The notes below the pieces were generated by a model. The model did not search any database. It saw only the letters and a list, made by a program, of their open reading frames with translations, and had not been told where the DNA came from. 64,000 bases of DNA, from the NCBI GenBank assembly GCA_033549025.1, contig JAWSUS010000003.1:32001-96000 (forward strand). The letters run 5' to 3'. The DNA is from Desulfuromonadales bacterium. Lineage in GTDB: Bacteria > Desulfobacterota > Desulfuromonadia > Desulfuromonadales > SZUA-540. The position numbers and the translations under genes were made by a program. Positions 27,559 to 43,585 of the stretch are shown here, one piece after another (positions within the stretch are counted from its first letter, which is position 1; every line of letters starts with the position of its first letter).

Positions 27559-28101
27559 GTGAATCCGCTGTGGGGCAATATTTTTCGTAAAAAATCCGAG
27601 GAAGAGTCCCTGGCCTACCTGCTGGGCACCATCCCCCTGTTTACCGATCTCAACGGGCGGGAGATCCGTCTGCTCGAATCCCTCGTCCACATCCGCCACT
27701 ACGATGCCGGCGAGACGATTTTTAACGAAGGCGATCCGGGCAGCGGTCTCTACATCATACGGTCCGGCCGCGTTCGCATTTTCCACCCATCCCCGTCGGG
27801 GCAGGAGGAGGAAGTAACGGTTCTCGGCCCGGGCGATTTTTTCGGCGAAACGACCCTCACCGCTCCGGCCAGCAGGACCGCTTCAGCCCGGGCGCTGGAA
27901 AATGCCGAACTGGTCGGGCTTTTTCGCGCTGACCTGATGGAGGTGATCCCCAAGAATCTCGGCCTGGCCAACAAAATCCTCATGGGACTGACCCGCTGTA
28001 TCAGTGAGAGGCTTCACAGCGCCAGCCATGAAATCCGTCGTCTCAAAGCCCAGCTCGAATCTTCCGCCAAAGAGCGTGAATCGACAGGGTTGCCCGAATG
28101 A
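27559..28101 (+). CDS. stand-alone cyclic-nucleotide-binding domain protein
   Basis: IFNEGDPG..LYIIRSGRV and GDFFGE..L...SRTASARA; no HTH domain. Confidence 0.9.
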   Translation: MNPLWGNIFRKKSEEESLAYLLGTIPLFTDLNGREIRLLESLVHIRHYDAGETIFNEGDPGSGLYIIRSGRVRIFHPSPSGQEEEVTVLGPGDFFGETTLTAPASRTASARALENAELVGLFRADLMEVIPKNLGLANKILMGLTRCISERLHSASHEIRRLKAQLESSAKERESTGLPE

Positions 28102-29222
28102 CTGACTCCAGAAAACTGACCCGCCCGCAAATCGTTCTGCTCTACCTGGTGCTGACGGCCGGCATCGCCAGCGGCCTGGCCATCTTTTCCTCGGCCACCA
28201 ACGTCTTCGGCCTGCTGAGAACGGCGACGGCCGGCCTGATTCTTCCTCTGCTGCTGGCCATGATCACCGCCTTTCTGCTCGACCCCCTGGTCAAATACAT
28301 CGAGAGGGATCACATCAGCCGGACGTTCAGCATTTTCGTCGTCTACCTGCTTATATCCTCGGCCCTTTACCTGGCCGCCAGCTGGCTGGTCCCCCAATGG
28401 GTGGATATGTGGAACTCGCTGCGGGCAGACATTCCACGCTATGCCGGCAACCTCGTTGCCTTTGTGAAAGAGGTGCAGCTGGGCCTGCAGGCCCGCTTGC
28501 CCATGATCCAGGGCTACGAATTTACCAGCAAAGCCCGCGACCTGATCGAAGGGGCCGTCGGCTACCTGCTGGTACAGACCCCCAAATCGGCCCTCCGCCT
28601 GGGCAGTCTGCTGATCCTGGTGCCGCTCTTTTCCTTTTTTTTCCTGCGCGACGGCCGCAAGATTCTGCGCTCCACGATTTCTCTGGCCCCCAACCGCCAG
28701 TTTGAAATGCTGCACGATCTCTCCTTTCATATCAGCCAGCAGATGGCCCACTTCATCCGCGGGCGCATTCTCGAGGCCTTTATCGTCGGCGTCGTGGTGG
28801 CCGTGGGACTGTCCTTCACCGACATCCGCTATGCCCCTCTGCTGGGCCTCTTCGCCGGGGTCACTAACCTGGTGCCCTATATCGGCCCCATCGTCGGCAT
28901 GATTCCCGGCCTGCTCATCGCCTTGACCGACCTCGGCATGGGCGGCCAGTTCTGGTGGATCGTCATGGTCTATGTCCTGATTGCGCAGGTGATCGTCGAC
29001 AATTTCATCCTCATCCCCATTCTCATCTCCCGCGTATCCAACCTTCACCCCCTCTGGGTCCTGCTGGCCATCATCATGGGCGGCAAACTCTACGGAGTTC
29101 TGGGCATGATTATCGGGGTACCCATCGCCAGCATCATCAAAATCGCGATTCTGGAGACGCGCCATTATCGCCGGACGTTCCAGCTGCCCGAACAGATCGC
29201 CGAACCCGACCGCCATCACTGA
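28098..29222 (+). CDS. AI-2E family transporter
   Basis: AFLLDPLV, FFFLRDG, NLVPYIGP, LHPLWVL and GMIIGVP motifs; ATGA overlap with the upstream gene. Confidence 0.92.
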   Translation: MTDSRKLTRPQIVLLYLVLTAGIASGLAIFSSATNVFGLLRTATAGLILPLLLAMITAFLLDPLVKYIERDHISRTFSIFVVYLLISSALYLAASWLVPQWVDMWNSLRADIPRYAGNLVAFVKEVQLGLQARLPMIQGYEFTSKARDLIEGAVGYLLVQTPKSALRLGSLLILVPLFSFFFLRDGRKILRSTISLAPNRQFEMLHDLSFHISQQMAHFIRGRILEAFIVGVVVAVGLSFTDIRYAPLLGLFAGVTNLVPYIGPIVGMIPGLLIALTDLGMGGQFWWIVMVYVLIAQVIVDNFILIPILISRVSNLHPLWVLLAIIMGGKLYGVLGMIIGVPIASIIKIAILETRHYRRTFQLPEQIAEPDRHH

Positions 29223-29340
29223 CGCCCCCTGACCATCGCCGGAGCCCTGCGGGACACCCCGGCGCCAGCCGCGTCGGCTTGACTTTGGCGTATCGTATAC
29301 ACCATACTGCCCCCATTCTCCCTTAAACAACGTGGTTTCG

Positions 29341-31320
29341 ATGAGCAAGTACCTTTTCGGTTTCGTCAAAAACCTCAGGCTTCGCCCGAAAATGCTGGTG
29401 ATCGTGCTGCCGGTGGTCCTCATCCCGATTTTCATTGTGGGGGCGCTCATCGGTGTGACCGCGACCAAACAGGCCTATCGCGGCATCACCCAGACGAGCA
29501 TGGATGACCTCGACCATATGGCGGGCTTCACACTCGACCTGCTCAACTCCCACTACCAGCAATTCCAGGTCTACAAGCAGGACAAACGCAAGTCCTTCAC
29601 CGAAGACCTGGGGGTGCTCACCGACTTCGCCTACAACCTCGTTGAAACCCAGCATCAGCAGTATCGCAATGGCACCCTCACTTTGGAGCAGGCCAAGGCG
29701 GAAGCCAAAAAGGCCCTGAAAAAAACCAGCGTGGGAGAAACGGGCTATATCTACGCCATCACCACAGCGGGTGACCTCAAGGTCCATGTTGCCCGGGAGG
29801 GGGAGAACATCATTGATGAACAGGACGAATGCGGCCGTTATTTCATCCGCGAGATGACGGAAAACGCCCTCCGCTCCCAAACGGACGAAGTTCAGTTCAT
29901 CACCTACCCTTGGCGCAACGAAATCCTCGGGGACACGGCTCCCCGTCGCAAAATCGCCGCCTACCGCTATTTTCGCGAATGGGACTGGATCATCGCCGTC
30001 AGCAGCTACCTCGACGAAACCTACGAAGACCTGGCCTTTGAAACCCGCTCCCTCGAAGAGCTTAAAGACAAGCTGAAAAGCAAGAAGGTCGGCAAAACCG
30101 GCTATATCTTCTGCATGGACAGTGAAGGGGAATTCACCGTACACCCTGAAGCGGAGGGGCAGAACCACTTCGATGCCGTGGATTCGGCAGGAAATCACTT
30201 TCTGCAGGAGATGATCGAAAAGAAAAACGGCTGGATCCGCTACCCCTGGCTGAACCCGGGAGAGGCCAGCCCGCGCATGAAAATTGTGCGCTACGTCTAC
30301 TTTGCTCCCTGGGACTGGATTGTGGGCGTCGGCTCCTACGAAGACGAATTCTACCAGGAGGCCAATCTCATCAAATGGCGCATCGTCACCGCCATGCTGC
30401 TGCTGCCGCTTTTCGTGGGCCTGGCGGCTGTCATCCTGATTTTTCTGGCCTCGAAAATTTTGACGGAGCCCATCAACCACATGATCGAGGTCATTCGTCA
30501 GGTCAAGCAGGGCCGGCTCGATGTGCAGATGCAGGTAGAAACTCGGGACGAACTGGGAGAACTGGCCACCACCTTCAACCGCATGACCGGCATCATCAAG
30601 CGCAATCAGGAAATGGAAGCCGCCTTGGCCCAGCAGGGCAAAATGGCCTCCCTTGGAATCCTCTCTTCCGGAGTGGCTCACGAAATCAACAACCCTCTGG
30701 GCGTCATTCTGGGTTATGCCAGCTATATGGAAGGCAAGATCCCGCCGGAAGATCCCAATTATAAGTACATCCACGAGATCAAACGGGAGAGCAAGCGCTG
30801 TAAAAAGATCGTTCAGGATCTCCTGAGCTATGCGCGAACGCCCAAACCGACCCTGGAAGAGACGGACATCAACGACCTGCTCACCCAGATCACCGACTTT
30901 GCCGCCAATCACACGGACATGCACCATGTTTCCGTCGTCTGCGATTTTGCCAGGGATCTCCCCCGCATACCTGTCGACGGCGATCAGATGCGGCAGGTGG
31001 CCATCAACCTGATTCTCAACGCCGGCCCCGCCATGGCAGAAGGCGGACAGCTGGTCGTCGGCACCCGGCTGGGGGATGACGGTTATCTTCACATCACTTT
31101 CCGTGACAATGGCTGCGGCATCCCGCCCGAAAATGTGGAGAAGATCTTTGAACCGTTCTTCACCACCAAGGCAAGAGGCACCGGCCTGGGCCTCGCCATC
31201 ACCAAGCAGATCATCGAGCAGCACCAAGGCAAGATCACACTTGAAAGCACGGTTGGCGAAGGAACCACCGTCACTGTCCTGCTGCCCGTGACCCAAGAGG
31301 AAAACTCCTATGGCTTCTAA
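29341..31320 (+). CDS. membrane sensor histidine kinase with tandem Cache domains and HAMP (NtrB-like core)
   Basis: Two GYI...H...YPW.N...K..Y....WDWI repeats, HAMP (RDELGELA), [15 protein letters not shown] and GTGLGL. Confidence 0.93.
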
Positions 31321-32695
31321 ACGCATCATGCTGATTGATAACGAAGAAGGCCTCTGCCGGATGATGGAGGCCATCCTGACCGACAACGGCTACGCGGCCA
31401 AAGCCTATACGCGCTCTTTTGAAGCGGTAGAAGAATTCAAGGGCTCCGACTGGGATCTGGTTATCAGCGATGTCAAAATGCCGGGCATGGACGGACTGGA
31501 AGTACTGCAGCGCATCAAGGAAAAATCACCCTCCACCCCCGTTATCATGATCACCGCCTTTGCCACCGTCGAGATGTCTATTCAGGCCCTGCGGCGGGGG
31601 GCCTACGATATTCTGACGAAGCCCTTCGAGCCCGAGGAACTTCTCTACCGGGTCAAAAATGCCCTCAAGCAGACCGAGCTCTTTGAAGAGAATCAGGAGC
31701 TGCGCAAAGAGCTGGTGGGCAAGTTCCGCTTTGACAATATCATCGGCGCCACCACCGGCCTGCGGCCTCTCATGGAGACGGTGGAAAAGATCGCCATCCG
31801 CGACACCTCCGTGCTCATTACCGGCGAGTCGGGTACGGGCAAGGAGCTGATCGCCCAGGCCATTCATTACAACAGCCCTCGCCGCGACAAGCGTTTTCTC
31901 GCCATCAACTGTGGCGCCCTGCCCGAGTCCCTGCTCGAAAGCGAACTCTTCGGCTACAAAAAAGGCGCCTTCACGGGCGCGACGGAGAACCGGCAGGGAC
32001 TGCTGGAAGCGGCGGACGGCGGTACCCTCTTCCTCGACGAAGTCGGCAACCTGCCGATGAACGTGCAGAAAACCCTGCTTCGGTTTCTGCAGGAGCAGGA
32101 ATTTCACCGCATCGGCGATACACGCCCCACCAAAGTGAACGTCCGCATCCTGTCGGCCACCAACGCCGACCTGCTTGCCGACGTTGAAAAGGGCACCTTT
32201 CGCGAAGATCTCTACTACCGTCTCAACGTGGTGAATCTCAGGCTCCCGCCCCTGCGGGAGCGCCGTGGCGATATCCCCTTGCTCGTGACCCACTTCATCA
32301 AACAGCAGAACGAAAAATTCGGCACCCAGATCAAGGGGCTCTCCAGTGAAGCACTCAACGCGGCCTGCCAGTTTTCCTGGCCTGGCAATATCCGCCAGCT
32401 GCGCAACGTACTCGAGGCCTCCATGGCGATAGAAACCGCAGAAGTCATCCAACTTGACACCCTGGCCCAGTTCATCGATACGGGAAAAGAAACAGCAGCG
32501 GAGCCAGCCCTTTCTTCGGACAGCGAAAACGACTATTCATCGGCCCTGGCTGATTTCGAAACCCGCTATCTCAAGAGTCTGTTGCAGAAAACAGGCGGCA
32601 ACGTCGAAGCCGCCGCCCGCGAAGCCGGTATGAACATGGCCACGATCTATCGAAAACTTAAAAAGTACGAAATCAGCCGGGATGATTTCTCCTGA
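31310..32695 (+). CDS. sigma54-dependent response regulator (NtrC family)
   Basis: Receiver (SDVKMPGMDG), GESGTGKE, GAFTGA, FLDEV and a Fis-type HTH. Confidence 0.97.
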   Translation: MASKRIMLIDNEEGLCRMMEAILTDNGYAAKAYTRSFEAVEEFKGSDWDLVISDVKMPGMDGLEVLQRIKEKSPSTPVIMITAFATVEMSIQALRRGAYDILTKPFEPEELLYRVKNALKQTELFEENQELRKELVGKFRFDNIIGATTGLRPLMETVEKIAIRDTSVLITGESGTGKELIAQAIHYNSPRRDKRFLAINCGALPESLLESELFGYKKGAFTGATENRQGLLEAADGGTLFLDEVGNLPMNVQKTLLRFLQEQEFHRIGDTRPTKVNVRILSATNADLLADVEKGTFREDLYYRLNVVNLRLPPLRERRGDIPLLVTHFIKQQNEKFGTQIKGLSSEALNAACQFSWPGNIRQLRNVLEASMAIETAEVIQLDTLAQFIDTGKETAAEPALSSDSENDYSSALADFETRYLKSLLQKTGGNVEAAAREAGMNMATIYRKLKKYEISRDDFS

Positions 32696-32701
32696 TCGCT
32701 C

Positions 32702-32880
32702 CTTGCAGTGATGCAAGGGGCTGTCCCAGACCATTTGCACATCTGCAAAAAATTTTTATGGCCCGGACTTTCTTCATAACACCTTGAAATCACACAACAC
32801 ACCCCTCTGTCAGGTGAGATTCTCCCCCAAAAGGCCGCCGCGCCCCCGTGACCTCCTGTCCTTTTTTGCACATTCGCAAA
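32702..32880. promoter_or_regulatory. three palindromic enhancer-like sites TTTGCA-N4-TGCAAA
   Basis: CTTGCAGTGATGCAAG 32702-32717, TTTGCACATCTGCAAA 32734-32749, TTTGCACATTCGCAAA 32865-32880. Confidence 0.75.
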
Positions 32881-32969
32881 AAACAAGCATCCTTACCACC
32901 AAAACTTGGCCTCACACAACACCCTGTTTTTAAATATCTTTTTCGCTTTCCGGCTTTTTAAACAAGCGT

Positions 32970-32985
32970 TGGTACGCCCTTTGCT
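32970..32985 (+). promoter_or_regulatory. putative sigma54 promoter of SatP-like gene
   Basis: TGGTACGCCCTTTGCT = GG-N10-GC, preceded by an AT-rich tract. Confidence 0.78.
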
Positions 32986-33145
32986 CTAGTAAATGATCAG
33001 TTGCTTCCGACGGTGCGTGGTGAGGCTTCGACCCGTTGAGGGACGGATCGAAACTCCCCCGCACCCGCTTTTCACCTCGAAAGACAGGCCACCGCCTCTG
33101 AGGCTGCCATCCTGTTGACCTGAAACCCCGGAGAGAGTTTCTGCC

Positions 33146-33724
33146 ATGATAAACAAATCCACGGTTTCAATCCTTCCCCTGTCCTCCGTCACTGTCAATT
33201 CCGCCCCTCTGGGCCTTTTGGGCCTGGGGCTTACTGCCCTGCTCTTCGGCGTACATCTCACAGGGCTCTTTACTGTAAACAGCCAAGTTCTGGCGACCTG
33301 CATGTTTTACGGCGGCGCCGGACAGATTCTCGTTGGCATCATGGAGTGGCGCCGGCAGCACACCTTCTGCGCCGTGACCTGCACAGCCTTCGGTCTCTTC
33401 TGGATTTCCCTGATCGCCCTGATCATCCTGCCTGAAGGCCATTCGGGGGCAGCCCCCCAAACCACCGAACTCGTCTCCTATCTCGCCATGTGGGGTCTTT
33501 TCTCTTTTATATTCCTGATCAACGCCCAGGTTCCGCTCCCACTCAAGCTGGTCTTTGCCGGCATATCCGGCATGATCCTGACCCTGGCCGCGGCAATCTC
33601 CCTGGCCAGTCCGGCTCTGCAGATTCTCGCCGGCTCTTTCGGACTGCTGGCCGCCGTCATGGCCCTGTATGCCGCCATGACACCCCCTTTGCGCCAGTTT
33701 TTCGCCAGCACCTCAAAGAGCTGA
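33146..33724 (+). CDS. GPR1/FUN34/YaaH (SatP-like) acetate/carboxylate channel, divergent
   Basis: NSAPLGL, FYGG.GQ...G..E, TF....TAFGLFW motifs; six hydrophobic segments. Confidence 0.85.
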   Translation: MINKSTVSILPLSSVTVNSAPLGLLGLGLTALLFGVHLTGLFTVNSQVLATCMFYGGAGQILVGIMEWRRQHTFCAVTCTAFGLFWISLIALIILPEGHSGAAPQTTELVSYLAMWGLFSFIFLINAQVPLPLKLVFAGISGMILTLAAAISLASPALQILAGSFGLLAAVMALYAAMTPPLRQFFASTSKS

Positions 33725-33803
33725 TTTTTTTCACGAGCCCCAAAACCCCGCTTACGGGCTGAGCCCCACACGGCTGTATTTTGTTCCCACATTCAGCATT
33801 CCC

Positions 33804-33833
33804 TTGACAACCCGCCCTGCCGACGGTTAATTT
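33804..33833 (+). promoter_or_regulatory. putative sigma70 promoter
   Basis: TTGACA followed 17-18 nt later by TTAATT/TAATTT. Confidence 0.45.
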
Positions 33834-33948
33834 AAAATATCGTTTTAAAGCTGTCGCCATGGCTAAATCCGCCATGACCGCACCGTGATTCCCAGCACGT
33901 CCGTCCGAAGGATTCTCCCTTGGGAGGGACGCTACCCCAGGAGACCTT

Positions 33949-34329
33949 GTGAACGCCCGACTGAGCCAACATCTAACCCTGCTCGGCCTGTGCTCCATGA
34001 TCTTTTACGGTGTCATGCTCGGTACCGGCAAGCTCTCCATTGAGGTCATGCCTCATTTTGTCATTTCCGCGGTTATTTTCCTCACCTCCGGCCGCCTCAT
34101 GCGCAAAGCTGCACGCAGCCAGGAGGAACTGGACAAAGAGGAAGAAAAACGCCAAAAGCAGGCGGAAGTGGACTGGGAATGGTTTACGGCCATGTTCAAC
34201 TGGACCATGGCTCTCATCGTCATGGGCACTCTCACCATCTTCCTGATGAAACCCCTGGGGTCCTCCTTTGTAGAAGCGCTCAAAAGCGTCACGCCCCACG
34301 CGCATTACGTCGACACCACTGTCCCCTGA
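33949..34329 (+). CDS. hypothetical membrane protein (3 TM)
   Basis: GTG with GGAG RBS; three hydrophobic segments and a charged linker. Confidence 0.65.
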   Translation: MNARLSQHLTLLGLCSMIFYGVMLGTGKLSIEVMPHFVISAVIFLTSGRLMRKAARSQEELDKEEEKRQKQAEVDWEWFTAMFNWTMALIVMGTLTIFLMKPLGSSFVEALKSVTPHAHYVDTTVP

Positions 34330-34517
34330 TTCAGACTGAAGGACGGTTCCGCCCCCTTCCCTTGTTAAAGTCCCCACCCTCAGGAATTTCCTGAGTTCCC
34401 TCACCCGCCCGTTTGTGCTAGGGTTCTTTTTAGTCACGCCAAGATCAAGGATTAATGCCTGAAGCCATGGTAATATTTGGCTTTTTCTAATCTCTCGCCA
34501 CCAGAAGAGATACTCTT

Positions 34518-35684
34518 ATGCCCTCAGACCAAAAACCCGACAAGACCCCAAGTCAGCAGATTGCTCAGATGCGGGCGGAGATTGCGCAGCTTCGGCAAGA
34601 GTTGAGCGAGAGCCAGACGGCCTATTCCAGGCTGGCCGCGCAGGAGGCCCGTTACCGCTCGCTGATGGAATTGGCGGCCGACGCCATTTTTCTCGGAGAC
34701 ACTCAGGGCAACATCACGGCAGCCAACGCCAGCGCCTTGACACTGACGGGATACGGGCAGGACGAGCTCATCGGCAGGAATATCTCCTGCCTTTTTTCAG
34801 ACGAAGAACGAACGACAAAACCTCTGCGTTATGACCTGCTCAAAGCCGGCAAGGTACTGCTGACCGAACGAAGTCTGACCAGAAAAGACGGCTCCACGGT
34901 CGCCGTCGCCATGAACAGCAAAATGATGCCTGACGGAACCTACCACACGGCCATGCGCGACATCAGCTACGCAAAACGCCTTGAAGAAGAGATGAACACC
35001 GCGCACAGGGAGCTGGAGAGATTTGTCTATACTATCTCCCACGATCTGCGCACACCGCTGGCGGCCATCATCGGGTTTGCCGAATTTCTGCAGAACGAGC
35101 CTGAAAAGCAATGGAATGAACAGACGGAAGATATTCTCGGCGAGATTGAAAAAGCAGGCACAAAGATGCTGAAGCTTTTGGAAGACCTGCTCTGCCTGGC
35201 CACCGCAGGGCGTCTCGAACGCCCGCAATCTCCGGTCGCCGCGACAGAGGTGGTAGGCTCTGTTCTGGCCGAGTTGAAAAGCCGCCTGAACCATGCCGGC
35301 ATCCAGGTTTCTGTCGGCCCACTCCCTTCCCTGCATGTCCCCGAAACTTTTCTCACCCAGGTTTTCAGCAATCTGATCGGCAACGCTCTGCGCTACGCGA
35401 GTGGGGCAAACAACTGTGTCACCATAGGCGGGGAGAAAAAGGGGAGCCGAGTCCGGTTTTTTGTACGGGACCAGGGCAGGGGAATTTCAAAAATGGAGCG
35501 TGACAGAATTTTCGAGGTTTTTTTTCGGGGTGAAAACACCCAAAAGAGCGAAGGTTCCGGCCTGGGCCTCGCCATCGTACAGAAAGTCGCTCAGGCTTAC
35601 GGCGGCAAAGCCTGGCTCGAGGATACGCCGGGCGGCGGCTGTACCTTCTGGGTCGAAATGGAGGATGTCCCGCCCACCGTCTGA
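34518..35684 (+). CDS. PAS-domain sensor histidine kinase (orphan)
   Basis: Coiled coil, PAS (AN.SA..LTGY..DELIG), SHDLRTPL, NLIGNA and GSGLGL. Confidence 0.92.
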   Translation: MPSDQKPDKTPSQQIAQMRAEIAQLRQELSESQTAYSRLAAQEARYRSLMELAADAIFLGDTQGNITAANASALTLTGYGQDELIGRNISCLFSDEERTTKPLRYDLLKAGKVLLTERSLTRKDGSTVAVAMNSKMMPDGTYHTAMRDISYAKRLEEEMNTAHRELERFVYTISHDLRTPLAAIIGFAEFLQNEPEKQWNEQTEDILGEIEKAGTKMLKLLEDLLCLATAGRLERPQSPVAATEVVGSVLAELKSRLNHAGIQVSVGPLPSLHVPETFLTQVFSNLIGNALRYASGANNCVTIGGEKKGSRVRFFVRDQGRGISKMERDRIFEVFFRGENTQKSEGSGLGLAIVQKVAQAYGGKAWLEDTPGGGCTFWVEMEDVPPTV

Positions 35685-35705
35685 CCTTTTAAAAGCGCTG
35701 GCTTT

Positions 35706-37028
35706 TCAGCTCAGGCCGTCGCGGCTACCGGACCTTTTCCAGAACAGGGGAGAAACCAGATACGACACGGCGGCGATCATGCAAACCACCAGGGCAGCGG
35801 TATAGTGATCGCGGCGTACCCCCAGGGCGAGAAGAAACAGAAACACCCCCAGAAAAAGCACCTTGGCGATTTTGGGAATTTTAGGCAACACCGTTCGGCC
35901 GAAGTGGGGATAAGGCACCCGTGAGACCATCAGCAAAGAGGTCGCCACTACGATAAGGGCCGACACCAGATCACTGGGAATCAGCACACAGGTCGTCCCC
36001 GCCAGCAAAGCGCCGGCCGGAGAGGGCATGCCCGCAAAAGTTCCCACCCCACCGGCGATCCCGGCCTTTCTTTTCTCCACCACAAAACGCACCAGACGGT
36101 AAACCACAGCGCCAACATAGATGACTCCGATCAGAGCCCCAATCCACAGCTTCGCAAAAGAAGCCATAACAATAAGTCCGACGGTAAGACCGAAACTCGT
36201 GCCATCGGCCACATCGTCAAAAAGCTCACCCTGTGGGGTCGACCCCCAGCGCTCCGCCGCTCTGCCGTCAAAAAGATCGAGAAACTGCCCGAGAAAAACC
36301 AGCCCCAGAGCATAGACGGCCGGGTGCCCGGCGAGGATCACCCAGCACCCGGCCAGACCGCACACCAGGTTGAGGATACTGAGGATATTGGCATACCAGT
36401 AGTTGGGAATGAGCTTGAAAAAGGTGGAACAAAAAGCCAGGGCGGCGACCATACCCATCAGCGGCTGGATGGATCGCCCCAAAAGTGGCAAGGGCCCGTA
36501 GATCCACTCCAGGCCGACGACGATCAACAAAACCACGACCAGAAAGGTCTTGGCCTTGCCAAAGAGGTTGGCCGCCTTGACCTTGATAAAATAGCGGGAG
36601 AGCTGGCCGGCAATATCGAAGGTCAGAAAGAAGCCAACGAGATAGGGATTGAGCCAGCCCCGCCAGGAGAGATAAACCAGCATGGGCGTGTACATGAGCT
36701 TGTCGGAAAAAGGATCAATTGTCTCCCCTTCTTCCGTGTGAAGGTCGCACTTGCGGGCAATATCGCCATCGGTGATGTCGGTAATCATCCAGAAGGTGAA
36801 GAAAAGAAAACTCAACTTCGGGTAGCCCATATGCAGAAAGGCGGCGGAAACAAAGCCCATGGGATAGCGGGCGCGGCTGATGGAATTGGGGTGGAGCCAG
36901 GCGTGCCGGCGCACCCAGGCCACCTGGGCAGGGGTTCGCAGAAAATACGTAACGGCAAAGCGCTCGGCCCCCAGCATCAGCAGGACCGGAAGGGCAATTT
37001 CAACGAGAATGGAAGTATATACGTTCAT
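35706..37028 (-). CDS. CDP-alcohol phosphatidyltransferase with two tandem catalytic domains
   Basis: Two D-x2-DG-x2-A...G-x3-D-x3-D motifs: DITDGDIAR...GETIDPFSD and DLFDGRAAE...GELFDDVAD. Confidence 0.85.
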   Translation of the reverse strand: MNVYTSILVEIALPVLLMLGAERFAVTYFLRTPAQVAWVRRHAWLHPNSISRARYPMGFVSAAFLHMGYPKLSFLFFTFWMITDITDGDIARKCDLHTEEGETIDPFSDKLMYTPMLVYLSWRGWLNPYLVGFFLTFDIAGQLSRYFIKVKAANLFGKAKTFLVVVLLIVVGLEWIYGPLPLLGRSIQPLMGMVAALAFCSTFFKLIPNYWYANILSILNLVCGLAGCWVILAGHPAVYALGLVFLGQFLDLFDGRAAERWGSTPQGELFDDVADGTSFGLTVGLIVMASFAKLWIGALIGVIYVGAVVYRLVRFVVEKRKAGIAGGVGTFAGMPSPAGALLAGTTCVLIPSDLVSALIVVATSLLMVSRVPYPHFGRTVLPKIPKIAKVLFLGVFLFLLALGVRRDHYTAALVVCMIAAVSYLVSPLFWKRSGSRDGLS

Positions 37029-37191
37029 GGCATCCTGCTTTGGATGAGAGTGAAAACAACCGCCGACATGCGGCGCAGGGCAAAAATCCTACGCCCCCTC
37101 TTATCCCACCCGGTCCTTTCGCTGTCAACCCGAAAAAAGGACGCCGGGGTTTCCCATCGACACAGCGCCATGGTGCAATCTACGGGTGAAA

Positions 37192-37232
37192 AGCACAAAA
37201 AACCCCGCCAAATAGGCGGGGCTTTTTGTGCT
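37192..37232 (-). terminator. intrinsic terminator downstream of OFA transporter
   Basis: AGCACAAAAAACCCCGCC-aaata-GGCGGGGCTTTTTGTGCT. Confidence 0.85.
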
Positions 37233-37251
37233 CGCGAAGCAAACTCTGAAC

Positions 37252-38523
37252 TTACTTGGAAGCTTCCTGATAGGCCAGTTCCTCTTCCTCGACGCCAACA
37301 GTTGCCGGCACTTCGACGGCCACTTCGGCCTTTTTGGGGCGAAGCGACAGGGACATCATGGCGCCAACCAGCAGCATGACACCGGCCACCATGAAGGAGG
37401 TGGTGAAGCCGCCGAACTTGGCATTGAGAGCCGCCGACAGTTTGACCAGAACGAAGGCCCCGATACCCCAGGCGGAGAACAGGATACCGTAGTTCATGCC
37501 GTAGTTTTTAAAGCCCCAGTAATCCTTGGCGAAGGAGGGGAAGAGGGACAGGTTGGTGCCGTAGTTAAAGCCGATGAAGGTGGCCAGCAGGGTGACGATA
37601 ACGGCGCTCGAATTGGTGTTGCCCACGACCGAAATGGCACCGAACATGAGGATGGCCTGGAAGACCAGCATGATGGTCAGGGTGGTGGCCCGGCCGATTT
37701 TGTCGGAAAGGACACCGGCCACAACGCGACCGGCAGCGTTACCCACGGCCATGACGGCCACGGCGATAAAGGCCATCTCGCCCATGCTCTGCTTGGCGAT
37801 ACCGGCGATGCTGCCGATGACCATCAGGCCGGCGCCGGCACCGATGAAGTAGGTCAGCCACAGGGTGTAGAAGCGGCCTTCACGCAGCATTTCGCCAGGT
37901 GTCTTCTCCACCGCGGAACTTTTCTTGGCGGCGGCGGGGGCAGAACCGGCCGGGACATAACCTGCGGGCGGGTTGGCGACCAGCAGGGCCATGCCGCAAA
38001 CGATGACGATGAAAGCGATGCCGAGGATCATCATGGTGCTGTGCAGACCATAGCTGCCCAACAGGTACTTGCTCAGCGGTGCCAGGTAGACCGGGGCGAT
38101 ACCGAAACCGGAGACGACGATACCGGCGATCAGGCCCGTTTTGGCCGAAGAGAACCATTTGAGAGCGGGGGGCGTGGCGGCCGAGTATCCGAAACCGAAA
38201 CCGAGGCCGGACAGCACGCCAAAACCGAAAATCCAACCCCAATAGCTGGAAGTCTGGGAACAGACGAGAAAGCCGGCGCCGACCAGAAGGCCACCGACAA
38301 TAGCGGTCATGCGGGGACCGACCTTGTCCTGCATCTTGCCGCCGATAATCATGGACAGGGCAAAGGCCAGGCAGGCGGTCGCATAGGGGTCGCCGGCGCC
38401 ATCAAACAGCTTGGCGATGTCTCCCTTGAGCATGCTGTACGCATAAAGAATACCCAGAGCCAGGTTTATTCCGGTCCCGGCCAAAACAACGGTCCAACCT
38501 CTACTGCTCGACTGTTCAGACAT
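37252..38523 (-). CDS. OFA-family (oxalate/formate antiporter-like) MFS transporter
   Basis: RGWTVVLAGTGINLALGILYAYS, GKMQDKVGPR, PPALKWF, GNAAGR..G..SDKIGR and NYGILF motifs; GAGGAG RBS before ATG 38523. Confidence 0.92.
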   Translation of the reverse strand: MSEQSSSRGWTVVLAGTGINLALGILYAYSMLKGDIAKLFDGAGDPYATACLAFALSMIIGGKMQDKVGPRMTAIVGGLLVGAGFLVCSQTSSYWGWIFGFGVLSGLGFGFGYSAATPPALKWFSSAKTGLIAGIVVSGFGIAPVYLAPLSKYLLGSYGLHSTMMILGIAFIVIVCGMALLVANPPAGYVPAGSAPAAAKKSSAVEKTPGEMLREGRFYTLWLTYFIGAGAGLMVIGSIAGIAKQSMGEMAFIAVAVMAVGNAAGRVVAGVLSDKIGRATTLTIMLVFQAILMFGAISVVGNTNSSAVIVTLLATFIGFNYGTNLSLFPSFAKDYWGFKNYGMNYGILFSAWGIGAFVLVKLSAALNAKFGGFTTSFMVAGVMLLVGAMMSLSLRPKKAEVAVEVPATVGVEEEELAYQEASK

Positions 38524-38874
38524 TTTTCTCTCCTCTGTCATGGGTGAAATATAGGCTTCGTGATAATGAGCCGTGACGTATCGCAACTGAAAAGACAAGG
38601 GCCAACGAGATTTAAAGGGGATATTGATGGGGGCCTCTTTCCGACCCGCCGTCGCCGCACTAACCTGTGGGGTCATGGCCGCGAGACCGGGCCGGGGCAT
38701 TTCTGACTGCGGTTCCGGCAGGGAACCAACGCGCTCGGCGAGTTCCTGATATTTGGCGCACTCCCTGAACCGGCAGTTACAGAACGCGACGATGGTTTTC
38801 ACATCGTGCGGCGAAATGTAACCGCAACCCACATCGCAATAATCTTCGTTCTGGCGGAAATAGGGACAAACCAT
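38524..38874 (-). CDS. Cys-rich module open in frame with the OFA transporter (N-terminal extension or small upstream protein)
   Basis: ATG 38874 with GGAG RBS; MVCPYFRQNEDYCDVGCGYISPHDVKTIVAFCNCRFRECAKY; no stop before the MFS start. Confidence 0.6.
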
Positions 38875-38941
38875 CGTGAACCTGCTCCAATAGGAGGTTG
38901 TCAGTTCGGGCCAATCGGTGGCCGTGTTGTATACCTCATAG

Positions 38942-38957
38942 AGCAACCGCCATACCA
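38942..38957 (-). promoter_or_regulatory. putative sigma54 promoter of Cys-module/OFA transporter
   Basis: Minus strand TGGTATGGCGGTTGCT = GG-N10-GC; AT-rich tract at 38960-39020 upstream. Confidence 0.78.
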
Positions 38958-39056
38958 ATGTTTGATTTTTACTCAATAAAAATATTTTTCTTATTATTTC
39001 CAAATACTTACAATTATCAAACCGTGACAGTTCAAGCCCCGCTCTATCCCGGAAAA

Positions 39057-39221
39057 TTTGCACGAATGCAAAAGGCCGGGCGGCGACCGAGACGTGATGG
39101 ATCGCTGTGAAATGTGCATCAAATCGGTGCCACAAGGGGGCTGAGGAGAAATCGGTGTCAGCCAAATCGGCTTTTCGCGACTCCGCAATCAGCCGCATCC
39201 GGCCTTTTGCAGTTTTGCAAA
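39057..39221. promoter_or_regulatory. enhancer-like palindromes TTTGCA-N4-TGCAAA
   Basis: TTTGCACGAATGCAAA 39057-39072, degenerate TTCGCGACTCCGCAAT 39174-39189, TTTGCAGTTTTGCAAA 39206-39221. Confidence 0.75.
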
Positions 39222-39279
39222 AAAAATCGACGTAAGCCGGGAGTCACAGGAGGGGGAAAGGGATCGAGGGAGGCTGAAC

Positions 39280-39310
39280 AAAAACGCCACCCCCAACGGA
39301 GGTGGCGTTT
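39280..39310 (-). terminator. intrinsic terminator of efpL
   Basis: AAACGCCACC / GGTGGCGTTT inverted repeat with a T-tract on the minus strand. Confidence 0.75.
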
Positions 39311-39334
39311 AAAAGAACCTGTTGGCAGGAAAAA

Positions 39335-39898
39335 TCAGGCGCGAGAGACGAAACGCCCTTCGCGGGTGTCCACCTTGACGCGCTCGCCGGCTTCGAGGTA
39401 ACCGGGAACCTGGATGTGCATGCCCGTCTCAAGCACCGCATCCTTGGTCTGGGCCGTAGCCGTGGCGTTCTTGATCGCCGGGGCGGTTTCGGTGACCAGC
39501 AGTTCGACGATCATGGGGGGATCGACGCTCACGACCCGCCCTTCAAAGACACCGAGCTGCACGTCGGCGCCCTCCAGCAGAAAACCCTTGATCGGCTCAA
39601 AGAGTTCTTCATCCAACTCGTACTGCTCGTAGTTTTCCAGGTCCATAAAGACGCCGCCATCCCCGGAAGGATAGAGAAATTGCCCTTTGCGCCGTTCAAA
39701 ATCGGCTTCATCGGCCTTGTCTCCCGCCTTGAAGGTCTTTTCCAGCACCTGGCCAGTAAGCAGATTGCGATACTTGGTTTTGACCAGGGTATTGCCGCCG
39801 CGGGCGGAAGGCGATTGGGTGGTCAGATCCAGAATAAGACAGGGGGCGTTATCCAGCTGAATAACGAGGCCCCGTTTGAAATCGGCAGTGGTGATCAT
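39335..39898 (-). CDS. efpL: elongation factor P-like protein (EfpL/YeiP type, Arg loop)
   Basis: EF-P fold motifs (FMDLENYEQ, LETG..IQVP, VDTR) with loop QSPSARGG; ATG 39898 with AAGGAG RBS. Confidence 0.85.
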   Translation of the reverse strand: MITTADFKRGLVIQLDNAPCLILDLTTQSPSARGGNTLVKTKYRNLLTGQVLEKTFKAGDKADEADFERRKGQFLYPSGDGGVFMDLENYEQYELDEELFEPIKGFLLEGADVQLGVFEGRVVSVDPPMIVELLVTETAPAIKNATATAQTKDAVLETGMHIQVPGYLEAGERVKVDTREGRFVSRA

Positions 39899-40091
39899 GA
39901 TTGACTCCTTCACGGAAAATTGAGTGCGACGGCAGAATGTATCACAGAGGCTTCCCAAAAAACAATCGGGCCGCTCAGGAAATTTTCAGTGACAAAACAG
40001 GCACTCCTGTGATTAAATGCGCAATTTCCGAGGCATGATATTCGCACCTGTTTCCACATAAAAAAAATATATACGCGAAGGAGAACGTTCC

Positions 40092-40655
40092 ATGTACACC
40101 TGTGCCGACCTTAAAAAAGGCCTCAAGCTGATGATTGACGGCGAACCTTACGTGATCGTCCAATTTGACTTCACCAAGCCCGGCAAGGGGCAGGCCCTTT
40201 ACAAGTGCAAACTGCGCAACATGATCACCGGCTCCCTCTTCGACCGCACCTACCGCTCCGGTGAGAGCTTCGAGCCCGCCGCCCTGGAAGACCGCGACAT
40301 GCAGTACCTTTACCAGGACGAAGAAGGCTACGTCTTCATGGACAACAAGAGCTTCGAACAGGTTACCCTGACCGAAGAAACCCTGGGCGACGACAAGTAC
40401 TTCCTCAAAGACAACATGGAAGTGAAGATCCTTCTGTATAACGGCCGCGGCATCGGCATCACCCTGCCGAATTTTGTCAACCTGCGCGTTACCCAGGCCG
40501 ACCCCTGGGTCAAGGGGGATACCGCTGCCGGCAACAACAAACCCGCCACGGTCGAAAGCGGCTACAACCTGGCGGTCCCCTCCTTTGTCGAGGAAGGGGA
40601 TCTCATTCAGATCGACACCCGCACCGGCGACTACGTCACCCGCGTCAAGGAATAA
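40092..40655 (+). CDS. efp: elongation factor P (Lys type)
   Basis: KPGKGQA loop, FMDNKSFEQ, KGDTA and IDTRTG motifs. Confidence 0.97.
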   Translation: MYTCADLKKGLKLMIDGEPYVIVQFDFTKPGKGQALYKCKLRNMITGSLFDRTYRSGESFEPAALEDRDMQYLYQDEEGYVFMDNKSFEQVTLTEETLGDDKYFLKDNMEVKILLYNGRGIGITLPNFVNLRVTQADPWVKGDTAAGNNKPATVESGYNLAVPSFVEEGDLIQIDTRTGDYVTRVKE

Positions 40656-40661
40656 ATCAGG

Positions 40662-41573
40662 ATGGACCCGAACTGGGCTCTGACCAGAAAACGTCTGAAC
40701 CTTGAAAAAAGAGCCCGGATTCTGCACAGAATCCGGGCCTTTTTTATGGAAGCCGGCTATCTCGAGGTGAGCACCCCCCATCGCGTACCCACCAATGCCC
40801 CCGAGAGCACTATCGATGCCGTGGCCAGCGAGGGCTGGTACCTGCACACCTCGCCGGAGCTCTGCATGAAGCGCCTGCTGGCGGCCGGTTACGAGCGGAT
40901 TTTCCAGATCTGTCCCTGCTGGCGACGTCAGGAGAGGGGAAGCCGCCATCTCCCCGAGTTCACCATGCTTGAATGGTACGGTGCCGCCAAGGATTACCAG
41001 GGTCTCATGGAGGAATGCGAAGCCCTACTGACCTGCCTGGTTCCCGACGGCACTCTGCGCTGGCAAGGACAGTCGCTGCAATTGACGCCTCCGTGGGAGC
41101 GGCTGACCGTCCGTGAGGCCTTTCGCCGGTACGGCTCCATCAGCCTGGAGCAGGCCCTGGCAACGGACACCTTCGACGAGGTGATCGCTTTTGAGATCGA
41201 ACCGAAGCTGGGCCGTGAACGACCGACTTTCCTCATCGAGTATCCGGCCGAACTGGCGGCCCTGGCCCGCCGCAAACCGGGACATCCGGAAGTGGCGGAA
41301 CGCTTTGAACTTTATGTCCTGGGGATGGAACTGGCCAATGCCTTCTCGGAGCTGACCGATGCCCCCGAACAGCGCCAGCGTTTTGAGGCCGAGGAGGCCA
41401 GGCGGCAAGCCGCCGGCAAGCCCCCTTACCCGCCGGCGGAGAAATTTCTGGCGGAGCTGCCGCTTATGCCGGAAGCGGCAGGCATTGCCCTCGGCCTCGA
41501 CCGGCTCGTCATGCTGTTGGCCGATACCCGCACCATCGACGAGGTTGTCGCGTTCACCCCGGAGGAGCTGTGA
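40662..41573 (+). CDS. epmA: EF-P beta-lysine ligase
   Basis: LHTSPELCMKRLLAAG, PEFTMLEWY, ELANAFSELTD and GIALGLDRL; no anticodon-binding domain; adjacent to efp. Confidence 0.93.
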   Translation: MDPNWALTRKRLNLEKRARILHRIRAFFMEAGYLEVSTPHRVPTNAPESTIDAVASEGWYLHTSPELCMKRLLAAGYERIFQICPCWRRQERGSRHLPEFTMLEWYGAAKDYQGLMEECEALLTCLVPDGTLRWQGQSLQLTPPWERLTVREAFRRYGSISLEQALATDTFDEVIAFEIEPKLGRERPTFLIEYPAELAALARRKPGHPEVAERFELYVLGMELANAFSELTDAPEQRQRFEAEEARRQAAGKPPYPPAEKFLAELPLMPEAAGIALGLDRLVMLLADTRTIDEVVAFTPEEL

Positions 41574-41575
41574 TC

Positions 41576-42520
41576 ATGAAAAAATGGACGGTATTTTCCA
41601 GTGTCTCTCGTTGCGTTTTACGACCAGGCCTTCTGTTTTTGTTGGTTCTGCTGGTATTGCCTGTGAGCAGTGGAGCCGAAGAGAATGCCCACACGGAAGG
41701 CGTCCCGGCCGACGCCCTCACCGCGCCCGTGGAATCAGCCATTACCCAGCGGCGGGCCTTCGAAAAAAAGATGTCGTCCAGCCGCTTCGCCATCATGCCT
41801 CACAAACAGAACTATCTGCTACCCGCCACCTATAATTCTTCGGTCAACGACGAACCCTACACGGGCACGGACCGCAACCTGGAACTTAAGGAAATAGAGG
41901 TCAAATTTCAGGTCAGCTTCAAAACGCCTCTGTGGGAGCGCATCGCCGGCCGGGGCACCCTGTACGCCGGCTACACTCAGCAATCCCATTGGCAGGCCTA
42001 CAACAGCGACGCCTCCTCCCCCTTTCGGGAAACGAACTATCAACCTGAAATCTTCCTCACCTTTGACAACGACTATTCCCTGCTGGGAGTGCGCAACCGT
42101 CTCATCACCTTGGGCTTCGAACACCAGTCCAACGGACGCAGCGAGCCCCTTTCCCGCAGCTGGAACCGTCTCTACGCCCAATTCGCCTTTGAGCGGGGCA
42201 ACCTCTATTTCGCCCTGCGCCCCTGGTATCGCATCCCCGAAAGCCGTTCCAGCGACGACAACCCTGACATCCACAAATACATGGGCTACGGAGAATTCAA
42301 TGCGGTTTACACCTGGGGGAACCACCGCTTCGGCCTCATGCTGCGCAACAACTTTCGCTCGGAAAACTACGGCGCCGTCCAGGTCGACTGGAGTTTTCCC
42401 CTGCACCCCCGCTTCGATGGCTACATCCAGTATTTCAACGGCTACGGCGAAAGCCTGATCGACTACAACCATTCCACCAACCGTATTGGCGTAGGAATCA
42501 TTATCGCCAACTGGCTGTAA
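41576..42520 (+). CDS. pldA: outer-membrane phospholipase A
   Basis: EVKFQVSFK, YTQQSHWQ, SSPFRETNYQPE, HQSNG...SRSWNR and GYGESLIDYN motifs. Confidence 0.95.
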   Translation: MKKWTVFSSVSRCVLRPGLLFLLVLLVLPVSSGAEENAHTEGVPADALTAPVESAITQRRAFEKKMSSSRFAIMPHKQNYLLPATYNSSVNDEPYTGTDRNLELKEIEVKFQVSFKTPLWERIAGRGTLYAGYTQQSHWQAYNSDASSPFRETNYQPEIFLTFDNDYSLLGVRNRLITLGFEHQSNGRSEPLSRSWNRLYAQFAFERGNLYFALRPWYRIPESRSSDDNPDIHKYMGYGEFNAVYTWGNHRFGLMLRNNFRSENYGAVQVDWSFPLHPRFDGYIQYFNGYGESLIDYNHSTNRIGVGIIIANWL

Positions 42521-42538
42521 GTCGTCTCGTTCCTGCCG

Positions 42539-43585
42539 CTAGCCGCAAGCCCCGTTGGGAAAGCGTACCAGCTCGCCTTCGGCCGTGCGGATCAGGATTT
42601 CATCCCCCATTTTTTCCACAGCCTGGGGCACAATCGGAACCTTCCCCTTGCCGCCCGGCAGATCGATGACATAGTGGGGAATGGCCAATCCCGACACCTG
42701 CCCGCGCAGGGCTTTGAGAATATCGATTCCCTCCTCTACCCGCGTGCGAAAGTGCCGGGTGCCGCTCACCAGATCCATCTGGTGCAGGTAGTAGGGCCGC
42801 ACCCGGAGGCGCAGCAGTCCTCTGAACAGTTCCGTCATCACCTCGGCATCATCGTTGACCCCCTTAAGCAGCACCGTCTGATTGCCCAGCACCACGCCGG
42901 CATCGGCCAGACGGCGGCAAGCCTCGGCCGCGGCGGGAGTAAGCTCGCGGGGATGATTGAAATGGGTGTTCAGATAGAGAGGGGCAAAGCGGCGCAGCAC
43001 CTTGCAGAGCCCGTCGGTGATGCGGTCGGGCAGGGTCACCGGCATGCGGGTGCCGATGCGAATGATCTCCACGTGGGGGATGGCGCGCAGGCGGCCGAGG
43101 ATGTCTTCGAGCAGCAGATCCGACATCATCAGGGGATCGCCGCCGGAGAGGAGAACATCACGCACCTTGGGGTTTCTGGCGATGTAGGCGATGCCGTCGA
43201 GCACCTCGTGGAAAGAGACCCGCATGGACGGACAGCCCACCTTGCGCTTGCGCGTGCAAAAACGGCAGTAGGTGGCACAGGTGCCGCTGACCAGAAACAG
43301 CACCCGGTCCGGATAGCGGTGCACGATGGCCGGGACGGGGGAAAGGACCTCTTCGTCCAGCGGGTCCGCCAGATCCTCGTCTGCCGCCAGTTCCGCCGCG
43401 TCCGGCACGCATTGCCGCCAGATGGGGTCGCCGGCCTCCCGGACCAGGTCCAGATAATAGGGGGTAATGCGCAGAGGATAACGGCTGGCGACCCGGTCCG
43501 TTTCAACGGGATCCAGCTCGAAGCGCCGGGCCAGTTCAGCCGGGCTCGTGATTGATTCCTTCAGTTGCTGCTGCCAGATTTCCAT
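42539..43585 (-). CDS. KamA/EpmB-family radical SAM lysine 2,3-aminomutase
   Basis: HRYPDRVL, CATYCRFC, LSGGDPL, HFNHPRE, NQTVLLKGVND and PGGKGK motifs; 348 aa. Confidence 0.9.
   Translation of the reverse strand: MEIWQQQLKESITSPAELARRFELDPVETDRVASRYPLRITPYYLDLVREAGDPIWRQCVPDAAELAADEDLADPLDEEVLSPVPAIVHRYPDRVLFLVSGTCATYCRFCTRKRKVGCPSMRVSFHEVLDGIAYIARNPKVRDVLLSGGDPLMMSDLLLEDILGRLRAIPHVEIIRIGTRMPVTLPDRITDGLCKVLRRFAPLYLNTHFNHPRELTPAAAEACRRLADAGVVLGNQTVLLKGVNDDAEVMTELFRGLLRLRVRPYYLHQMDLVSGTRHFRTRVEEGIDILKALRGQVSGLAIPHYVIDLPGGKGKVPIVPQAVEKMGDEILIRTAEGELVRFPNGACG

Follow-up and report, generated by a model that had tools for sequence, protein, structure and literature searches.

Which regulator controls two candidate carboxylate transporter genes that lie near a two-component system in a Desulfuromonadales bacterium, and to what signal does it respond? 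The window analyzed here comprises 64,000 nucleotides of this genome (GenBank assembly GCA_033549025.1, contig JAWSUS010000003.1, positions 32,001 to 96,000 of the forward strand), and positions are given in window coordinates. Bacteria of the Desulfuromonas and Geobacter type live on short organic acids, yet for most of the numerous sigma54 activators they possess, no site, target, or signal has been assigned. The initial annotation had proposed that the kinase and regulator of this locus activate a SatP-like gene (satP) and a gene of the major facilitator superfamily (MFS) through the palindrome TTTGCA-N4-TGCAAA. The comparative support for this activation is strong, with binding of the palindromes by the regulator predicted; the further claims that the regulon is local and that the MFS protein belongs to the OFA family did not hold. 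Judging from the sequences compared, it is probable that the two-component system drives both transporters via palindromes at sigma54 promoters in response to a short monocarboxylate.

Palindromes and sigma54 promoters in the window

The genes of the two-component system and the elements of the two promoters are listed below (palindromes and AT-rich tracts are given without strand).

29341..31320, plus strand: sensor kinase with dCache_2 (two sCache_2-like modules), HAMP, HisKA, and HATPase_c domains, by Pfam
31310..32695, plus strand: sigma54 response regulator with REC, AAA+ (containing GAFTGA), and Fis-type helix-turn-helix (HTH_8) domains, by Pfam
32702..32717: distal enhancer site 1 of the satP promoter, CTTGCAGTGATGCAAG, two mismatches, itself a perfect palindrome, matrix score 17.1
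32734..32749: distal enhancer site 2 of the satP promoter, no mismatches, perfect palindrome, score 24.0
32865..32880: proximal enhancer site of the satP promoter, one mismatch, score 15.9
32915..32965: AT-rich tract before the satP promoter, putative bending site for integration host factor (IHF)
32970..32985, plus strand: sigma54 -24/-12 promoter of satP, TGGTACGCCCTTTGCT, second-highest promoter score genome-wide, start predicted at 32996
38942..38957, minus strand: sigma54 -24/-12 promoter of the MFS gene, TGGTATGGCGGTTGCT, highest promoter score genome-wide, start predicted at 38931
38960..39020: AT-rich tract before the MFS promoter, with an IHF-like sequence at 38998-39010
39057..39072: proximal enhancer site of the MFS promoter, no mismatches, perfect palindrome, score 23.0
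39174..39189: degenerate distal site of the MFS promoter, TTCGCGACTCCGCAAT, four mismatches, score -0.3, weak
39206..39221: distal enhancer site of the MFS promoter, no mismatches, perfect palindrome, score 25.8, the genome maximum

The -24/-12 promoters and the AT-rich tracts preceding them are present at both transporter genes where the initial annotation had placed them. The proximal palindromes, described there as about 90-100 bp upstream, are separated from their promoters by 89 and 99 bp, and the distal pairs are spaced by 32 bp at both promoters, as had been claimed. The regulator gene was likewise seen to end just before the first array, its stop codon at 32695 lying 6 bp ahead of the first site.

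With up to two mismatches, seven palindromes were counted in the window against 2.8 expected, a modest excess that 3 of 100 shuffled sequences reached. All three perfect copies of TTTGCA-N4-TGCAAA in the 3.39 Mb genome are sites at these two promoters, to which four of the six palindromes with at most one mismatch also belong. A site matrix was trained on 65 sites at 27 promoters from relatives outside the genus and gave the form TTYGCA-N4-TGCRAA. The genome scan with this matrix ranked the two window promoters 1 and 2 and the five good window sites 1, 2, 3, 6, and 8. The sixth site, at 39174, is matched in score by 2132 genome sites, and its score therefore gives it no support. It occupies the slot used in relatives, where 36 of 45 close pairs have a spacing of 29-33 bp. 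Its TYGCG-N4-CGCRAA form is shared by the window and both congeners examined, though the flanks vary. Position and congener conservation thus argue weakly for this site.

The three-site architecture that the two promoters were said to share, consisting of a proximal site and a pair spaced by 28-34 bp, was found at 35 of 56 promoters; it is common but not universal, and the third site of the MFS promoter is the weak one. The proximal sites lie at 102-105 or 112-116 bp in 47 of 54 cases, forming two clusters one helical turn apart. Across the 56 promoters, 31 IHF-like matches fall in the -60 to -41 bin. The AT fraction of these promoters reaches 0.67-0.78 at -50 to -20, where it peaks. The geometry is consistent with the IHF-assisted looping described at sigma54 promoters in PMC4641369. 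A -24/-12 promoter with palindromes about 100 bp or more upstream, conserved alongside the activator, was thus found.

Regulator, regulon members, and their conservation

The kinase and regulator genes overlap, and the regulator has its cognate kinase beside it, as in the NtrC family. It shows the REC/AAA+/HTH arrangement of an activator, with GAFTGA in 40 of 41 orthologs and GSFTGA in one. Of 201 genomes in the order, 150 have a full-length ortholog (64-98% identity), nearly always single; in the phylum, it was found in 17 of 301 genomes. In a quick tree, the 41 orthologs formed one clade (support 100) against 24 paralogs. The recognition helix M-N-M-A-T-x-Y-R-K is invariant in all 41 and occurs in none of the 24 paralog C-termini.

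The initial annotation had called for a scan for co-occurrence of the motif with sigma54 promoters and regulator orthologs. Of the 150 genomes with the regulator, 119 contain the strict pattern of sites and promoter, vs. 10 of the 51 lacking the regulator; the reversed-pattern control gave two matches in 201 genomes. Counts are given here because related genomes are not independent and the Fisher p value overstates the association. Six of the ten pattern-positive, regulator-negative genomes hold a kinase ortholog or pieces of the regulator, the system being interrupted or lying where a contig ends. Among the loci compared from relatives (30 short and 40 long ones), the usual order is kinase, regulator, sites, sigma54 promoter, and satP. 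An MFS gene with its own sites is near by in many of these loci, and in some the MFS gene, satP, and a gene for a 126-aa membrane protein form one run. The regulon is therefore not local; its conservation extends over the order and farther, and unlinked genes belong to it.

The matrix scan found a third promoter in the genome on a different contig (C19:46100, within C19:45855-46584, locus L102), with sites at -245 and -109. Its target is a truncated alpha/beta-hydrolase-like gene of 137 aa without the nucleophile motif. Longer hydrolase homologs stand behind sites and promoter in genomes G014, G019, and G016, in the last of these after a satP-like gene; the strict pattern precedes hydrolase homologs in 6 of 121 genomes. 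Three of the 24 strong sigma54-like promoters of the genome, found with a promoter matrix trained on this same regulon, carry the site; 300 permuted matrices gave a mean of 0.027, and one reached three. In three of five same-class genomes, an MFS homolog has its own sites and promoter, in one case about 490 kb from the regulator; in the other two, it is last in a site-bearing operon containing the open reading frame of the four-cysteine protein described below.

No catabolic enzyme or operon was detected among the promoters examined. A lactate-catabolism regulon was considered and found unsupported, LutB-like genes not tracking the regulator: in family f24, the regulator is present in 23 of 24 genomes and a LutB-like gene in 3 of 24. 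Ahead of an apparent branched-chain amino acid-type ATP-binding cassette (ABC) transporter in genome G024 (L103:7220), a sigma54 promoter with two moderate sites was observed; this transporter is a possible lineage-specific member of the regulon. In loci L073, L081, L087, and L096, satP paralogs stand in tandem, two or three per locus and each with its own sigma54 promoter, and degenerate copies occur together with canonical ones.

Among the genes around the system, a PAS kinase (34518-35684) and a CDP-alcohol transferase (35706-37028) were rejected as its parts, since they intervene only in two congeners among the 40 loci. The latter gene, which is on the minus strand and beside that of the PAS kinase, has a product containing two CDP-alcohol phosphatidyltransferase domains. 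Next to the MFS promoter (39335-43585) are efp with an EF-P paralog, an EpmA-like gene, and, at a greater distance, a gene for a probable EpmB-like aminomutase; EF-P genes flank the regulon in many relatives. Upstream of the kinase lie genes for a cyclic nucleotide-binding (cNMP-binding) protein and an AI-2E transporter (27559-29222), the AI-2E gene being found in about half of the 40 loci.

Sensor, transporters, and the four-cysteine module

The phospho-accepting histidine is invariant among the kinase orthologs. The pocket residues Y/H/Y/W/K are identical in both Cache modules in all ortholog rows having a residue there. Module 2 was aligned to the structures 4EXO, 4K08, and 5G4Y. Equivalents of 4EXO Y96, F98, H109, F148, W150, and K161 are kept in both modules, with only Y/F exchanges (40-41 of 42 rows). 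Both modules thus show the short-carboxylate pocket of sCache_2/dCache_2 sensors (Y, aromatic, H/L, F/Y, W, K), with histidine at the variable position. According to PMC11844446, histidine at this position favors pyruvate and leucine L-lactate. For GSU2490 of Geobacter sulfurreducens, annotated as an oxalate-formate antiporter, an earlier study predicted an RpoN promoter and saw the gene rise on RpoN over-expression (PMC2725144). The pocket histidine, the untracked LutB-like genes, and the GSU2490 data together favor a pyruvate-type acid; there is about an even chance, on these residues and gene patterns, that the signal is such a C2/C3 acid rather than L-lactate.

The transporters and the elements associated with them are as follows.

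32996..33075, plus strand: conserved leader element of satP with 5' GUU(A/G)CU(C/U)C, an extended GC-rich hairpin carrying GUUGAGGGAC at its apex, and a tail rich in U
33146..33724, plus strand: divergent SatP/AceTr-family channel (NF038013, 131 > 50 bits; below the PRK10659 cut-off)
33949..34329, plus strand: unnamed 126-aa membrane protein, mostly directly after satP, a likely regulon member
37252..38874, minus strand: four-cysteine domain, linker, and SfMCT-type MFS transporter in one 540-aa frame, with an internal Met at 38523 that has its own GAGGAG
38725..38874, minus strand: unnamed four-cysteine domain of 50 residues with invariant C3, C13, C32, and C39, at the start of the MFS frame

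The satP product belongs to the AceTr/SatP family, with PF01184 and NF038013 (AceTr_1) above their cut-offs. Its signature deviates: NSAPLGL replaces NPAPLGL, and the FLY constriction is L/F/I in the window copy. The canonical motif occurs in only 13 of 44 SatP rows, and the equivalents of Q50 and W76 are retained in 43 of 44. The 126-aa membrane gene was found in 30 of 40 relative loci; the Pfam search gave only a sub-threshold TctB match for its product, whose Atlas cluster consists of 548 hypothetical proteins.

The MFS protein had been annotated as an OFA member. Its reading frame opens at 38874, not at 38523. The OFA models TIGR00890 and TIGR04259 failed (191 < 375 and 135 < 335 bits, under the curated cut-offs), and the L-lactate model NF049980 of SfMCT was passed (378 > 320 bits). 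The carboxylate-site residues of SfMCT (Y119, N276, R280, Y331, and F359) are kept. The proton-site and confinement residues are replaced (H250S, L145F, and F335L) in each of the 21 rows that have a residue at these positions, and the substrate and coupling of this carrier may therefore differ; L-lactate specificity should not be assumed from the sequence. Because the internal Met at 38523 is preceded by a ribosome site of its own, long and short MFS forms may both be made.

The four-cysteine domain forms part of a 117-residue N-terminal extension of the window MFS protein. It runs in frame into SatP (21) or MFS (13) in 34 of 36 cases, with linkers of 70-128 codons; the remaining two junctions are ambiguous, and none of the 36 contains a stop codon. 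In same-class genomes, the domain occurs as a free protein of about 63 aa, whose gene leads an operon and is followed by genes for 83-aa and 349-aa membrane proteins without Pfam matches above cut-off. This operon was observed in L163 (6654-8279), L164, L165, and L168, with an MFS gene sometimes next. The domain is also joined to a HisKA stub without a catalytic domain, stand-alone in five proteins (P0168, P0169, P0178, P0180, and P0189) and ahead of an MFS transporter in four loci (L185-L188). It is present in 147 of 150 genomes with the regulator vs. 8 of 51 others, seven of the eight holding kinase or regulator pieces. In the phylum sample, it was found in 15 of 17 regulator genomes vs. 0 of 284 without the regulator; it is single-copy in 137 of 155 genomes. 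Genomes G206 and G313 (loci L167 and L169) are without it. In these two loci, the regulator, sites, and satP precede genes for two Cache proteins, the first of them standalone, Cache-like, and periplasmic. A linker motif, P-F-x-x-K-W-P-L, is conserved before the MFS core (window 38575-38625, minus strand; L092, L100, L124, L128, and L133-L135) and apparently persists as an N-terminal MFS extension where the domain has moved to SatP.

Searches of Pfam, NCBIfam, and Foldseek gave no meaningful match for the four-cysteine domain, and Atlas hits were under 0.9. Its structure model is of low confidence, with a predicted local distance difference test (pLDDT) score of 64. A complex of the module with the cytoplasmic kinase dimer and residues 1-400 of the regulator was predicted weakly, at 0.45 vs. 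0.25 for the best control. The runs share at least 28% of contacts, and the partners reach a pLDDT of at least 63; no interface is given. The mark used for such predictions was reached by 116 of 157 solved pairs and 2 of 215 mismatched pairs, and at values up to 0.60, by only 18 solved pairs and both mismatched ones. The modeled complex therefore shifts the odds of the module binding the kinase or regulator little. That the four-cysteine module may be a regulatory accessory of the system is the least certain part of our interpretation.

The satP leader was compared in 119 sequences, classed by sequence alone. The loop motif GUUGAGGGAC is present in 21 of them, and 22 others have a GUGACUCC-type start and a terminator-like hairpin. 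Covariation gave 25 cells with two-sided changes in the 21 aligned leaders, picked by motif, vs. 0 of 500 shuffles and 9-15 in slid controls. No Rfam match at E <= 1 was obtained over 29000-40200, the whole 156-nt leader is no more stable than shuffled sequences (z -0.92), and in the genome-wide search the leader pattern (29 of 201 genomes) does not exceed the reversed control. With stability unexceptional and the pattern at control level, the case for the leader comes from position and covariation, and a role in attenuation or as a small RNA is a guess.

Contigs from RNA libraries (three runs of one sediment study, from close, non-identical strains) span satP and the fused MFS frame to 38878 and leave the 32640-32983 bin, immediately ahead of the satP promoter, without depth; as contigs, they are weak evidence and tell neither starts nor levels. 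Another run, X1, was set aside for apparent DNA carry-over, its contigs crossing both promoters.

Proposed mechanism, alternatives, and known systems

Onto the observed genes, sites, geometry, and joint conservation, general sigma54 biology would place the binding steps and the pocket residues the signal. The dCache_2 kinase would sense a short monocarboxylate, and the phosphorylated regulator would bind the distal pair (about 31 bp apart) and the proximal site (upstream by about 103 or 114 bp). IHF would bend the AT tract, and the AAA+ domain of the regulator would open the sigma54 promoter, turning on the SatP-like channel and the SfMCT-like carrier. The expected result is increased transport of monocarboxylates, in the simplest case their uptake. 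The regulon would also include the 126-aa membrane gene and the alpha/beta-hydrolase-fold gene, truncated here, with usually one copy of the four-cysteine module heading a regulon transcript.

Several observations weigh against this mechanism. The pattern occurs without a detected ortholog in G021, G031, G069, and G128 (the last by the kinase query only), and it is missing from 31 of the 150 regulator genomes, including all nine of genus g24. The window SatP is divergent in sequence and might not conduct, and the MFS carrier lacks H250. LutB-like lactate genes do not follow the regulator. The pocket residues of Cache module 1 were assigned by likeness to module 2, the one aligned to the structures. 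In addition, primer extension at GSU2490 pointed to an RpoD-type promoter (PMC2725144). If GSU2490 is an ortholog, this may count against simple sigma54 control, or the conditions of that study, with acetate as the routine donor, were non-inducing.

A regulon for overflow or acid stress would use the same regulator and sites, with an end product such as acetate or formate as signal and the transporters exporting it. SatP channels reportedly pass acids both ways, the MFS protein is without the H250 proton site, no catabolic enzyme stands among the promoters examined, and lactate genes are untracked by the regulator, all of which would fit export. Against export stand the extracytoplasmic sensor, a trait of uptake systems, the absence of an LctP permease from the genome, and the fact that this MFS protein is the sole homolog of its kind there. 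The sigma54 promoter of GSU2490, if that gene is the ortholog, was silent with acetate as the routine donor, which speaks against acetate as inducer. Export is on balance unlikely. It is highly improbable that the palindromes are read by another, unlinked activator and that the adjacent two-component system is a mere neighbor. The genome does encode 25 sigma54 activators, Fis-type activators are said to read TGCA half-sites often, and the four genomes with the pattern and no detected ortholog would agree with this; yet the site follows this ortholog at the order and phylum levels and lies directly behind it in most loci.

For the four-cysteine domain, a simpler origin is conceivable, namely that it is a passenger, a small first gene minus its stop codon, with the working transporter made from the internal start at 38523. 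The GAGGAG before that Met, the many linkers ending in an EE-x-x-M stretch that encodes one, the free-standing domain of same-class genomes, and the differing length and sequence of the linkers speak for it. The frame open into SatP or MFS in nearly all junctions, the single copy that tracks the regulator, and the conserved second linker motif speak against it, and we regard it as rather doubtful. Also doubtful, and slightly more so, is a regulon with its own feedback arm, in which the module, probably metal-binding, made first, and tethered to the membrane by the fused transporter, would bind the kinase or regulator and damp or tune signaling. In some lineages, the HisKA stub may then drain phosphate. 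The satP leader may double as an attenuator or as a small RNA driven by sigma54, its 5' end being anti-Shine-Dalgarno-like. If the module does feed back on the kinase, it would represent a new form of transporter-linked signaling control.

Under the preferred mechanism of sigma54-dependent activation by the two-component system, one of the most conserved activators of these bacteria gains a precise site, a promoter geometry, a target list, and a candidate ligand class, and a genetic model is available in same-class relatives. The unnamed domain occurs on two unrelated transporter folds, on a HisKA stub, or free, and this regulator nearly always accompanies it. No description of the motif, regulon, or domain was found in the literature searched, mostly open papers, which left uncovered the supplements of PMC2725144 and PMC2700814 (Gmet_P upstream elements) that could list the site; the available parts of the main texts of PMC2700814, PMC3543383, PMC12316311, PMC13274346, and PMC13702588 contained nothing on them.

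All features of a sigma54 two-component regulon that can be read from sequence were found. In the DctB/DctD-dctA system of rhizobia and pseudomonads, a Cache-type membrane kinase and an NtrC-family activator act through tandem upstream sites and a sigma54 promoter on an adjacent carboxylate transporter gene. The present locus shares with it a carboxylate transporter next to the regulator genes under kinase/NtrC-family/sigma54 control. It differs in the sensor (dCache_2 vs. dCache_1), in the targets (AceTr and SLC16-type monocarboxylate transporters vs. DctA), in the palindrome, and in the additional four-cysteine module and leader hairpin. The Desulfovibrio regulators DVU3023, DVU0539, and DVU0946 (PMC4641369) are similar as deltaproteobacterial two-component GAFTGA activators of carboxylate transport with upstream sites and sigma54; they control lactate catabolic operons and other transporter families, whereas no catabolic operon was found here. 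AtoS/AtoC, the best NCBIfam matches, likewise form a short-chain acid two-component system with a sigma54 activator; identity with AtoSC was rejected, the scores being far under the cut-offs (257 vs. 646 and 454 vs. 714 bits) and the sensor domain and targets being different. BccR-cbcBA of G. sulfurreducens (bioRxiv 10.1101/2021.04.15.440034) also combines a sigma54 response regulator with a target operon headed by a hypothetical gene. Identity with BccR was rejected from the arrangement, bccR being divergent from a cytochrome operon, none of which follows the regulator in same-class loci. Among the transporters, SfMCT, the bacterial SLC16 L-lactate transporter (PDB 6G9X; PMC6573034), shares NF049980 and five residues with the MFS protein, which adds the four-cysteine extension. 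The SatP/AceTr channels (PDB 5YS3 and 5ZUG; PMC8379382) share AceTr_1 and differ in signature and constriction, and relatives of the window protein are often fused to the four-cysteine domain. By analogy, the system may be best described as a DctBD/LurSR-like regulon with extra parts.

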